Part shown: positions 2,411-3,311 of the stretch, one piece after another
Position numbering within the stretch: position 1 is the first letter of the stretch
Layout: each line of letters opens with the position of its first letter
From: Bacillota bacterium
GTDB lineage: Bacteria; Bacillota; GCA-003054495; Carboxydocellales; JAJZTU01
Direction: 5' to 3'
DNA: 49,831 bases
Assembly (NCBI GenBank): GCA_021848765.1
Contig: JAJZTU010000002.1
Location: 1-49,831, forward strand
Program-made: the position numbers and the translations under genes
The notes under the pieces: generated by a model
What the model was told of the DNA's origin: nothing
What the model saw: the letters and a program-made list of their open reading frames with translations, nothing else
Databases searched by the model: none

Positions 2411-2439
2411 AATTTATCACAATTAGCAAACGGTGTCAA
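2411..2439 (-). promoter_or_regulatory. sigma-A type promoter for rpmG-secE-nusG (TTGACA-17-TAAATT)
   Basis: On the minus strand, the -35 TTGACA is at 2434-2439 and the -10 TAAATT at 2411-2416, with an exact 17-nt spacer. It lies about 65 nt upstream of the rpmG ATG. Confidence 0.6.
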
Positions 2440-2440
2440 T

Positions 2441-2513
2441 AGTTTCCTTCCGGCGTTTCCTTCTGGTATAGTTTTCTTCTGGTATAGTTTCCTTCTGGCG
2501 TTTCCTTCTGGCC
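2441..2513. repeat. five tandem copies of a 12-nt motif (plus GTTTCCTTCTGG, minus CCAGAAGGAAAC)
   Basis: Copies start at 2442, 2455, 2471, 2487 and 2500, giving spacings of 13/16/16/13 nt. The array directly abuts the -35 of the rpmG promoter. Confidence 0.9.
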
Positions 2514-2716
2514 ATAATTCGCGGAAATGCCCACTCAAATCTTTCCCGGCCGAATTAACGACCGGTCGGAGGGATTCTGTTGCGCACCGGGACAATAACC
2601 GTTACCGGACGGAGCAATGCACGCCCCCACTGGCAGGCACTTCGACCGAAATTTTCTTCCATCACAGGTGGTCGTTCTCAGCTAGGGGCAACTACCTAAT
2701 CCCAGTGCAGGCTTAG

Positions 2717-2766
2717 ACTATAGCCGGCGCACGCAGTTGCAGGCATATGCCTATAGCCAGCGCACG
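2717..2766. repeat. direct repeat CTATAGCC(G/A)GCGCACGC x2 flanking the 12-bp palindrome AGGCATATGCCT
   Basis: Read directly from the sequence. A third degenerate copy, CTATAGCTTAGCGCAACGC, lies at 2819-2837. Confidence 0.85.
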
Positions 2767-2871
2767 CTTTCTGACGGTATGTACCACTAAACGCTAGTAT
2801 TACCACATTCGGCATATTCTATAGCTTAGCGCAACGCTGTTAGTCAGAACCTTGACCCTCCTTTTCACCCA

Positions 2872-3085
2872 GGGCGGGTACCTGCCGGTGGGGAGCGACT
2901 CGCGGAGTACGGTAGCAGCTCTTAGCGCGGGTGTGCAATAAAATTGACCTTGCCGCCACGGAAGGCGGCAACCCCGCTGGGGTCACGGACGACCCATCAG
3001 CGGGGTTGGTCAATTTTATTAGCACACCGAGCTTAGAGCTGCACCGTACGGAGCGCGGAGACGACCCACTGGCAGGTACCCGCCC
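2872..3085. repeat. 214-nt imperfect palindrome predicted to fold as a long stem capped by a two-hairpin junction
   Basis: Outer arms GGGCGGGTACCTGCC (2872-2886) and GGCAGGTACCCGCCC (3071-3085) pair. Inner perfect 13-bp arms AATAAAATTGACC / GGTCAATTTTATT also pair. The two inner hairpins (2950-2971 and 2972-3005) have apical loops ACGGAA and ACGGAC. Confidence 0.85.
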
Positions 3086-3186
3086 GGAGACAAACAAGTC
3101 CGACCAAAGAGCAACGCAGTTGAGCAGGAGAGAAGTGAGTTCAACCGAAGCAAAGAGGTAAGCCTACACAAAACATAAATAGCGCA

Positions 3187-3222
3187 ACAAAACAAAAAAC
3201 CAGTCCCGCTTTGCGGAACCGG
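3187..3222 (-). terminator. rho-independent terminator after the tRNA cluster
   Basis: Minus strand reads CCGGTTCCGC-AAA-GCGGGACTGG, a 10-bp stem with 2 G-U pairs, followed by TTTTTTGTTTTGTT. Confidence 0.8.
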
Positions 3223-3234
3223 ATCGTTTACATT

Positions 3235-3311
3235 TGGTAGCGGCGGAGGGACTTGAACCCCCGACACTGCGGGTATGAACCGCATGCTCTAGCCAGCTGA
3301 GCTACGCCGCC
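3235..3311 (-). tRNA. tRNA-Met (CAT), elongator type, CCA encoded
   Basis: Sequence: GGCGGCGTAGCTCAGCTGGCTAGAGCATGCGGTTCATACCCGCAGTGTCGGGGGTTCAAGTCCCTCCGCCGCTACCA. It folds as a cloverleaf with anticodon loop TTCATAC. A G1-U72 start makes an initiator unlikely. A lysidine-modified Ile2 tRNA cannot be excluded. Confidence 0.85.

Follow-up and report, generated by a model that had tools for sequence, protein, structure and literature searches.

An inserted copy of a dispersed TwoAYGGAY repeat in the spacer between a tRNA cluster and rpmG of a Bacillota genome

What occupies the 888 bp that separate rpmG (2197-2346) from tRNA-Met (3235) in the Bacillota genome considered here, and does the long palindrome found within this gap belong to the neighboring operons, to a structured RNA or to a mobile element? 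The window analyzed is a stretch of 49,831 nucleotides (GenBank assembly GCA_021848765.1, contig JAJZTU010000002.1), to which all unlabeled coordinates refer, and the source genome (G000) is a 3.33-Mb draft in 374 contigs with a completeness of 83%. Every gene in this terminal part of the window is encoded on the minus strand. The first of them in transcription order is sigH, followed by a tRNA-Met/Thr/Met cluster and, beyond the gap, by rpmG, secE, nusG, rplK and rplA; the intrinsic terminator of the tRNAs and a strong promoter-like site in front of rpmG lie within the gap (Table 1). When SigH was used to place the genome among its relatives, the nearest records were from uncultured Bacillota and the next ones were named Desulfosporosinus and Desulfotomaculum records. 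A first-pass annotation made from the letters alone had described the gap as devoid of a credible ORF, and this was borne out: the frames of 76-135 aa within the gap, including the mirror-image ORFs that cross the palindrome, gave no Pfam match, and in the 2197-2595 frame the Pfam match is limited to the L33 part.

The same annotation had dissected the palindrome into perfect outer arms of 15 bp, perfect inner arms of 13 bp and an apex split into twin hairpins with the loops ACGGAA and ACGGAC. Both pairs of arms are indeed perfect and were also recovered by a repeat search of the sequence, and the twin hairpins had been placed exactly to the base. The span originally proposed, 2872-3085, encloses a real palindrome and is shorter than the repeat unit, which extends from 2863 to 3109. 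Folding in silico, suggested at the time as a check, showed an exceptionally stable structure on either strand: RNAfold gives -165.5 kcal/mol for the plus strand and -160.2 for the minus strand, whereas shuffled sequences average about -88 (z = -15.1 and -14.4, respectively; none of 200 shuffles is as good).

Table 1. Coordinates of the features in and around the rpmG-tRNA spacer of the window.
Feature	Position	Strand	Basis or remark
sigH	4412-3747	-	First gene in transcription order at this window end
tRNA-Met, tRNA-Thr, tRNA-Met cluster	3467-3235	-	Downstream of sigH
Intrinsic terminator of the tRNA-Met/Thr/Met cluster	3222-3200	-	Hairpin and T-run; context, outside the element
Insert relative to sister genera, 743 bp	2449-3191		blastn against G002 and G003
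3' tail, degenerate reiterated units (AAGTCCGACCAAAG..., GAGTTCAACCGAAG...)	3087-3160	+	Copy alignment with flanks; tandem tails elsewhere
Intact copy of the ~250-nt repeat, full shared unit, ~247 nt	2863-3109	+	nhmmer, profile of the genome's own copies; blastn ~2864-3110
TwoAYGGAY (RF01731) match, full model 1-168	2900-3056	+	cmscan
5' half of the perfect 15-bp outer arm, GGGCGGGTACCTGCC	2872-2886	+	Sequence; helices 1-2 of the consensus structure; pairs with 3071-3085
3' half of the perfect 15-bp outer arm, GGCAGGTACCCGCCC	3071-3085	+	Sequence
5' half of the inner P1 stem, AATAAAATTGACC	2937-2949	+	Helices 9-10: all pairs covary, cells almost all Watson-Crick; pairs with 3008-3020
3' half of the inner P1 stem, GGTCAATTTTATT	3008-3020	+	Sequence and consensus structure
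Apical hairpin 1, 8-bp stem, loop ACGGAA (2958-2963)	2950-2971	+	Helix 11; context CACGGAAG fits CANGGANG
Apical hairpin 2, two-tier stem, loop ACGGAC (2985-2990)	2972-3005	+	Helices 12-13; context UCACGGACGA
Degenerate 33-nt tandem units upstream of the intact copy	2706-2847	+	TRF period 33; direct repeats
Relic second copy, 5' arm only, head-to-head with the intact copy	2564-2643	-	nhmmer profile 15-96, E = 3e-5 (window); direct repeats
Short tandem repeats ATAGTTTCCTTCTGGCGTTTCCTTCTGG, reiterating the ancestral AGGAAACTAT junction by the rpmG -35	2439-2511	+	Direct repeats; comparison with G001-G003
rpmG promoter-like site, TTGACA-17-TAAATT with TG	2439-2411	-	Conserved in G001-G003; context, outside the element
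rpmG	2346-2197	-	Followed by secE, nusG, rplK, rplA

By eye, the palindrome had been matched to none of RNase P, tmRNA, 6S, SRP, OLE or a T-box, but it is not unclassifiable: in the Rfam scan, cmscan assigns it to RF01731, TwoAYGGAY, with 57.9 bits, the gathering score of the family being 43 (E = 6.6e-9 to 1.6e-8), and besides the tRNAs and this match all other Rfam families have E > 0.6 in the gap. This RNA family was described in 2010 and has remained an orphan. Its description lists two AYGGAY terminal loops and a P1 stem that is 'often very large', with occurrences in Clostridia, gamma-proteobacteria and the human gut (PMC2864571, supplement), and the example P1 stem of the original description measures 24 bp (PMC2864571). 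Like the family as described, the window copy is a full-length match to the covariance model with two AYGGAY-type loops and a very long closing stem; in the consensus of the copies, helices 8-10 of P1 comprise 31 pairs, and a further outer rod lies beyond them. Similarly, the element is intergenic, occurs in Clostridia-type Bacillota and shows no tie to 5'-UTRs (compare Weinberg et al., 2010). Here, unlike in the described family, an outer rod, a 5' leader and a 3' tail of reiterated units surround the motif and bring the unit to about 250 nt; there are about 25 full copies per genome, often as head-to-head pairs. In addition, loop 1 of the window copy, ACGGAA, departs from the TwoAYGGAY consensus by having A instead of Y at its final position. 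The family is thus one already catalogued, still an orphan, to which the window contributes one ordinary further copy.

More precisely, the palindrome is one intact copy (2863-3109, plus strand) of a dispersed structured repeat of about 250 nt, the core of which is TwoAYGGAY RF01731. In the source genome, cmsearch reports 16 TwoAYGGAY matches, with the window copy among the 12 above the gathering score, and blastn finds about 30 places of 70-93% identity spanning window positions 2864-3110. A profile search recovers 25 full copies and 27 fragments, whose pairwise identity has a median of 77% and a maximum of 95%. The nhmmer profile scores the window copy at 229 bits on the plus strand versus 53 bits on the minus strand, so the unit has a polarity despite its palindromy. 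Alignment of the copies with their flanks shows that the unit ends in the inverted repeats CCAGGKCGGRTACCTG and CAGGTAYCCGMCCGG, and short tandem arrays flank many copies. All copies in this genome are intergenic, and many are located at contig ends. Their orientation with respect to neighboring genes was considered and given no weight, the ORF calls being crude and including a spurious ORF in the window gap. Among 41 relatives, the repeat is present in 8, with a patchy distribution and multiple copies wherever it occurs; in a phylum-wide sample, the TwoAYGGAY motif was found in 40 of 401 genomes, and blastn searches of plasmid and phage collections gave no match to the element.

Adjacent copies follow a single arrangement. 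In three genera of this family, all 13 of 13 adjacent pairs are head-to-head, with a minus-strand copy followed by a plus-strand copy: the pairs lie at window positions 2564-3109, on contigs C20, C363, C68 and C258 of the source genome and, in G001 and G002, at loci L047, L049, L051, L053, L028 and L036. The spacers between partners measure 67-653 bp and are mutually unrelated in sequence. An origin of the pairs by local inverted duplication was rejected, as partners are 61-79% identical, belong to different subfamilies and are not nearest relatives; within a pair, the two copies are no more alike than random copies. The copy set is old and diverged, which makes it useful: it provides strong covariation, a call of the folded strand, an insertion polymorphism at a conserved ribosomal locus and a clear head-to-head bias.

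The structural alignment comprises 37 full copies from three genera, for which RNAalifold gives a consensus of 74 pairs in 13 helices. Covariation in the stems, another check proposed by the first-pass annotation, is extensive: across the 37 copies, 96.9% of the cells are paired and compensatory double changes occur at 60 of the 74 pairs. None of 500 shuffles reaches the observed level, and sliding the partner by 1-3 columns reduces pairing to 30-42%. The strand on which this fold is maintained can be read from its mispairs, since an A·C combination on one strand is a G·U on the opposite strand. On the plus strand, the alignment contains 95 G·U versus 17 A·C, about half of the G·U cells coming from three columns common to many copies, and this excess indicates that the plus strand, on which the AYGGAY loops are displayed, is kept folded as a single strand. 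The plus strand folds alone into a long imperfect rod that ends in a three-way junction and two AYGGAY hexaloops on C-G closing pairs. In the inner P1 stem and both apical hairpins, 1169 of 1184 cells are Watson-Crick and 2 are G·U; such a near-absence of wobble pairs is unusual for an RNA helix. The earlier suggestion of a structured RNA recognized by a protein or ligand is thus supported by the compensatory plus-strand fold and by the conserved loops, with the correction that the structure belongs to the known RF01731 and is not an unmatched one.

The history of the spacer can be traced by comparison with G002 and G003, which represent two genera of the same family and order as the source genome. 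Their homology to the window ends at 2448, just upstream of the rpmG -35, and starts again at 3192 (G002) or at 3234, where the tRNA gene ends (G003); the corresponding spacer from the tRNA-Met terminator to the rpmG promoter is only 110-136 bp long in both. The repeat profile finds no remnant in these 'empty' spacers. Insertion thus brought the copy into the spacer that separates the tRNA-Met terminator from the rpmG promoter, and the decayed older copy of opposite orientation and the tandem repeats are likewise absent from the sister genera. G001 has an intact copy directly beside the same rpmG promoter; this copy is oriented like the relic, and the contig begins within it. In the window, one more unit of the 33-nt array is found at 3105-3127, which results in an imperfect 15/21 direct repeat around the intact copy.

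Several smaller observations concern the insertion point itself. The tandem repeats at 2439-2511 seem to have arisen through repeated junction events at a single insertion point, and the G001 copy ends at the point of these junction repeats. Additionally, the G002 spacer (L021, about 3240-3290) contains the stretch AACAGCCGCAAAGCCTTGGGAATACTGG, with a short AGCCGCAAAGCC, which resembles the 5' leader and first bases of some copies (AGCCGCAAAGC..TTTACCCAGG) and may be either a footprint or a favored target site.

The location of the copy exactly between the tRNA terminator and the rpmG promoter might suggest a locus-specific cis element for the rpmG-secE-nusG operon or for the tRNA cluster, which would insulate the two units from each other, block read-through or provide an RNase III site between them. 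The very stable fold on both strands would suit such a function, as would an apex that resembles a two-way terminator, with GC hairpins followed by AAUUUUAUU. However, about 25 unrelated loci carry the repeat unit, several subfamilies have lost the T-run, and no match to the profile derived from the source genome was found near sigH in G002, in G003 or in 80 further relatives fetched through SigH. Because of the copy number and the empty orthologous sites, this explanation is largely refuted and must be regarded as extremely improbable. For annotation purposes, what fills the 0.85-kb 'gap' upstream of rpmG is debris of repeats, not a new regulatory RNA of the ribosomal operon.

If the element is not tied to its locus, it could be mobile DNA and nothing more, i.e., a MITE- or REPIN-like palindrome recognized as single-stranded DNA or as a cruciform by a transposase acting in trans (for instance, of the HUH/Y1 type), with the GGA loops as the recognition site and no RNA function. 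Many of the above results agree with this possibility: the numerous dispersed copies and solo-end fragments, the empty sites in the sister genera, the inverted-repeat ends CCAGGKCGGRTACCTG and CAGGTAYCCGMCCGG, the imperfect direct repeat around the window copy, the almost purely Watson-Crick inner stems and the head-to-head clustering of 13 out of 13 pairs. Likewise, no promoter was found for the copy, which is antisense to its neighbors, and the single-strand signature is also expected of single-stranded-DNA transposition. As in REPIN/REP sequences with their RAYTs and in MITEs, the units are short, non-coding, intergenic and multi-copy, differ in presence and absence between relatives, form an inverted doublet or long hairpin and are located between terminators and promoters. 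Unlike in those elements, the unit is of far greater length and has a branched apex that is conserved, its copies are strongly diverged and structurally intact, and no copy-flanked RAYT/Y1 gene, regular target-site duplication or matching insertion-sequence ends were found.

The first-pass annotation had also considered a MITE-like element, and this stands insofar as the element has many dispersed copies and is missing from this site in the sister genera. It does not extend to a plain MITE: terminal inverted repeats and 25 full copies are present, but the copies are diverged (median identity 77%), the fold is kept in all of them, and neither a clean target-site duplication shared across copies nor an autonomous partner was found. 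The 15/21 repeat that flanks the window copy is also a unit of the local tandem array, and no common pattern appears across copies. No autonomous transposase-encoding element sharing these ends turned up in the genome, which is 83% complete. A link to RAYT/IS200 elements was examined and rejected, because none of the three Y1_Tnp (PF01797) genes of the source genome, located on contigs C342, C298 and C324, lies near a copy; on these contigs, the repeat profile finds nothing even at E <= 10. Furthermore, the fact that old copies all keep the fold and the loop motif fits selection better than neutral decay after insertion, and the nesting of the motif within CsrA-encoding genomes (see below) is left unexplained by a purely DNA-based element. 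Such an element is unlikely to be the explanation. The repeat behaves as an old, probably mobile element that folds as a single strand, and its spread would depend on trans-acting machinery that recognizes the conserved ends or loops.

Mobility could also involve an RNA intermediate. In a SINE-like retroelement, the plus-strand RNA would be copied in trans, e.g., by the reverse transcriptase of a group II intron, and the repeats of the 3' tail would arise as side products when synthesis is primed or the enzyme jumps between templates. The fold signature on one strand and the reiterated 3'-terminal units at many copies are in line with this mechanism, and the genome does encode group II intron reverse transcriptases. 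In a 2026 preprint (10.64898/2026.09.22.753630), the terms TwoAYGGAY, reverse transcriptase and cDNA are mentioned 52, 14 and 24 times, respectively; nothing is concluded here from these counts. On the other hand, the copies have no A-rich tail and no consistent target duplication, a bacterial precedent has not been shown, and the only reverse transcriptases found are those of two ordinary group II introns, one of them frameshifted and neither near a copy. Correspondingly, a reverse transcriptase link was rejected after inspection of the RVT_1 matches, which are these two introns with their D1-D4 and D5-D6 RNA domains, and a SINE-like origin is considered very unlikely. The frameshifted gene (contig C224, 6099-6727; L018) is split into parts of 204 and 209 aa, and its intact paralogue is found on contig C47.

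A function for the folded plus strand is suggested by its loops, which read C-A-[C/U/A]-G-G-A-[C/U]-G in nearly all of the 37 copies. RsmE/CsrA sites have been described as A/U-CANGGANG-U/A, and the SELEX consensus is quoted as RUACARGGAUGU (PMC6849547). The loop consensus of the copies equals the CANGGANG core and fits the SELEX consensus as well, and loop 2 of the window copy (UCACGGACGA) fits A/U-CANGGANG-U/A at all ten positions. TwoAYGGAY RNAs have been proposed as CsrA-binding RNAs of Clostridia (Gardner and Eldai, 2015; PMC4333381). Since each of the two loops fits A/U-CANGGANG-U/A, it is proposed that they clamp a CsrA dimer; as RNA, the element would present both loops to a single dimer.

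The distribution of CsrA is compatible with this proposal. The source genome encodes CsrA (PF02599, 92 bits) on contig C52, which, like the Y1 and reverse transcriptase contigs, contains no repeat copy according to the profile, and a CsrA gene is present in 8 of 8 motif-bearing relatives. In the phylum sample, CsrA was found in 39 of 40 genomes with the motif versus 231 of 361 (64%) without it (p = 1.1e-6 in a Fisher test that ignores phylogeny), and the lone motif-bearing genome outside this count shows only a sub-threshold CsrA match. This co-occurrence may instead stem from lifestyle or genome size.

The element shares several features with the Csr/Rsm decoys CsrB, CsrC and RsmX/Y/Z. These include GGA in hexaloops on short GC stems, the fit to A/U-CANGGANG-U/A and two candidate sites about 27 nt apart, a distance that suits one CsrA dimer; moreover, TwoAYGGAY belongs to Rfam clan CL00106, and csrA is present in the genome. 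Classical decoys, however, are regulated genes that occur only once, have a promoter and a terminator of their own and contain 5-22 GGA sites, whereas the element has two sites per unit, scattered copies, no recognizable promoter and the behavior of a mobile repeat. A consensus scan found no sigma-70-like promoter on the plus strand upstream of the copy. Two further points were counted against an RNA role. First, relative to both flanking operons the motif is on the antisense strand, in a copy that has a terminator on one side and a promoter on the other. Second, the relic at the same site indicates that the decay of single copies is tolerated.

The best functional reading at present, a putative two-site CsrA clamp, agrees with everything tested. 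Based on the loop sequences, each copy might tentatively be viewed as a portable two-site decoy or target of CsrA, a possibility that falls short of an even chance. If the loops do clamp CsrA, Clostridia-type bacteria would possess an equivalent of the CsrB/RsmZ decoys of Proteobacteria, in the form of a mobile repeat dispersed over the genome. Overall, the observations are probably best explained by an inserted TwoAYGGAY copy with a plus-strand fold, a putative two-loop CsrA clamp and putative spread by mobilization in trans.

A more elaborate version of the clamp proposal is conceivable, although improbable. TwoAYGGAY units could be self-spreading RNA modules in which a hairpin 'shell', formed by the arms, the leader and the reiterated tail, carries the two-site CsrA clamp as its cargo and homes head-to-head beside existing copies, the shell being open to other cargos. 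If so, the genome would tune its pool of free CsrA by gaining and losing mobile decoys. This idea derives from the uniformly divergent pairs, whose partners are not closest relatives, from the nesting of the motif within CsrA-encoding genomes and from contig C209 of the source genome, where a second repeat of 232 nt lies between fragments of the shell arms. The arrangement on C209 spans positions 1194-1672, with the 232-nt repeat between the 3'-arm (1194-1252) and 5'-arm (1601-1672) fragments of a minus-strand TwoAYGGAY unit, and it gives the impression that the interior between the outer arms can be exchanged, as in a cargo swap.

The second repeat is a separate family of the source genome. 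It is about 232 nt long, reads GGCCTAAAGCC...CGGGTCGCTTAGCCGG and is closed by a long-range GGGAGGAGGTGGGG/CCCCACCCCCTCC stem. Eight full copies were located (C176:1195-1426, C230:20489-20719, C217:3190-3420, C170:635-865, C1:8642-8874, C359:4541-4770, C244:8399-8622 and C209:1315-1535), six of which are followed, about 65 nt downstream and in the same orientation, by a TwoAYGGAY copy. This family has no Rfam match and a fold z-score of only -2.65, and it is absent from the window. Locus L006, on contig C170, additionally carries, at 1441-1627 of the locus and about 0.9 kb from a TwoAYGGAY copy, a lysine riboswitch (RF00168, 123.5 bits), which is ordinary and unrelated to the repeat.
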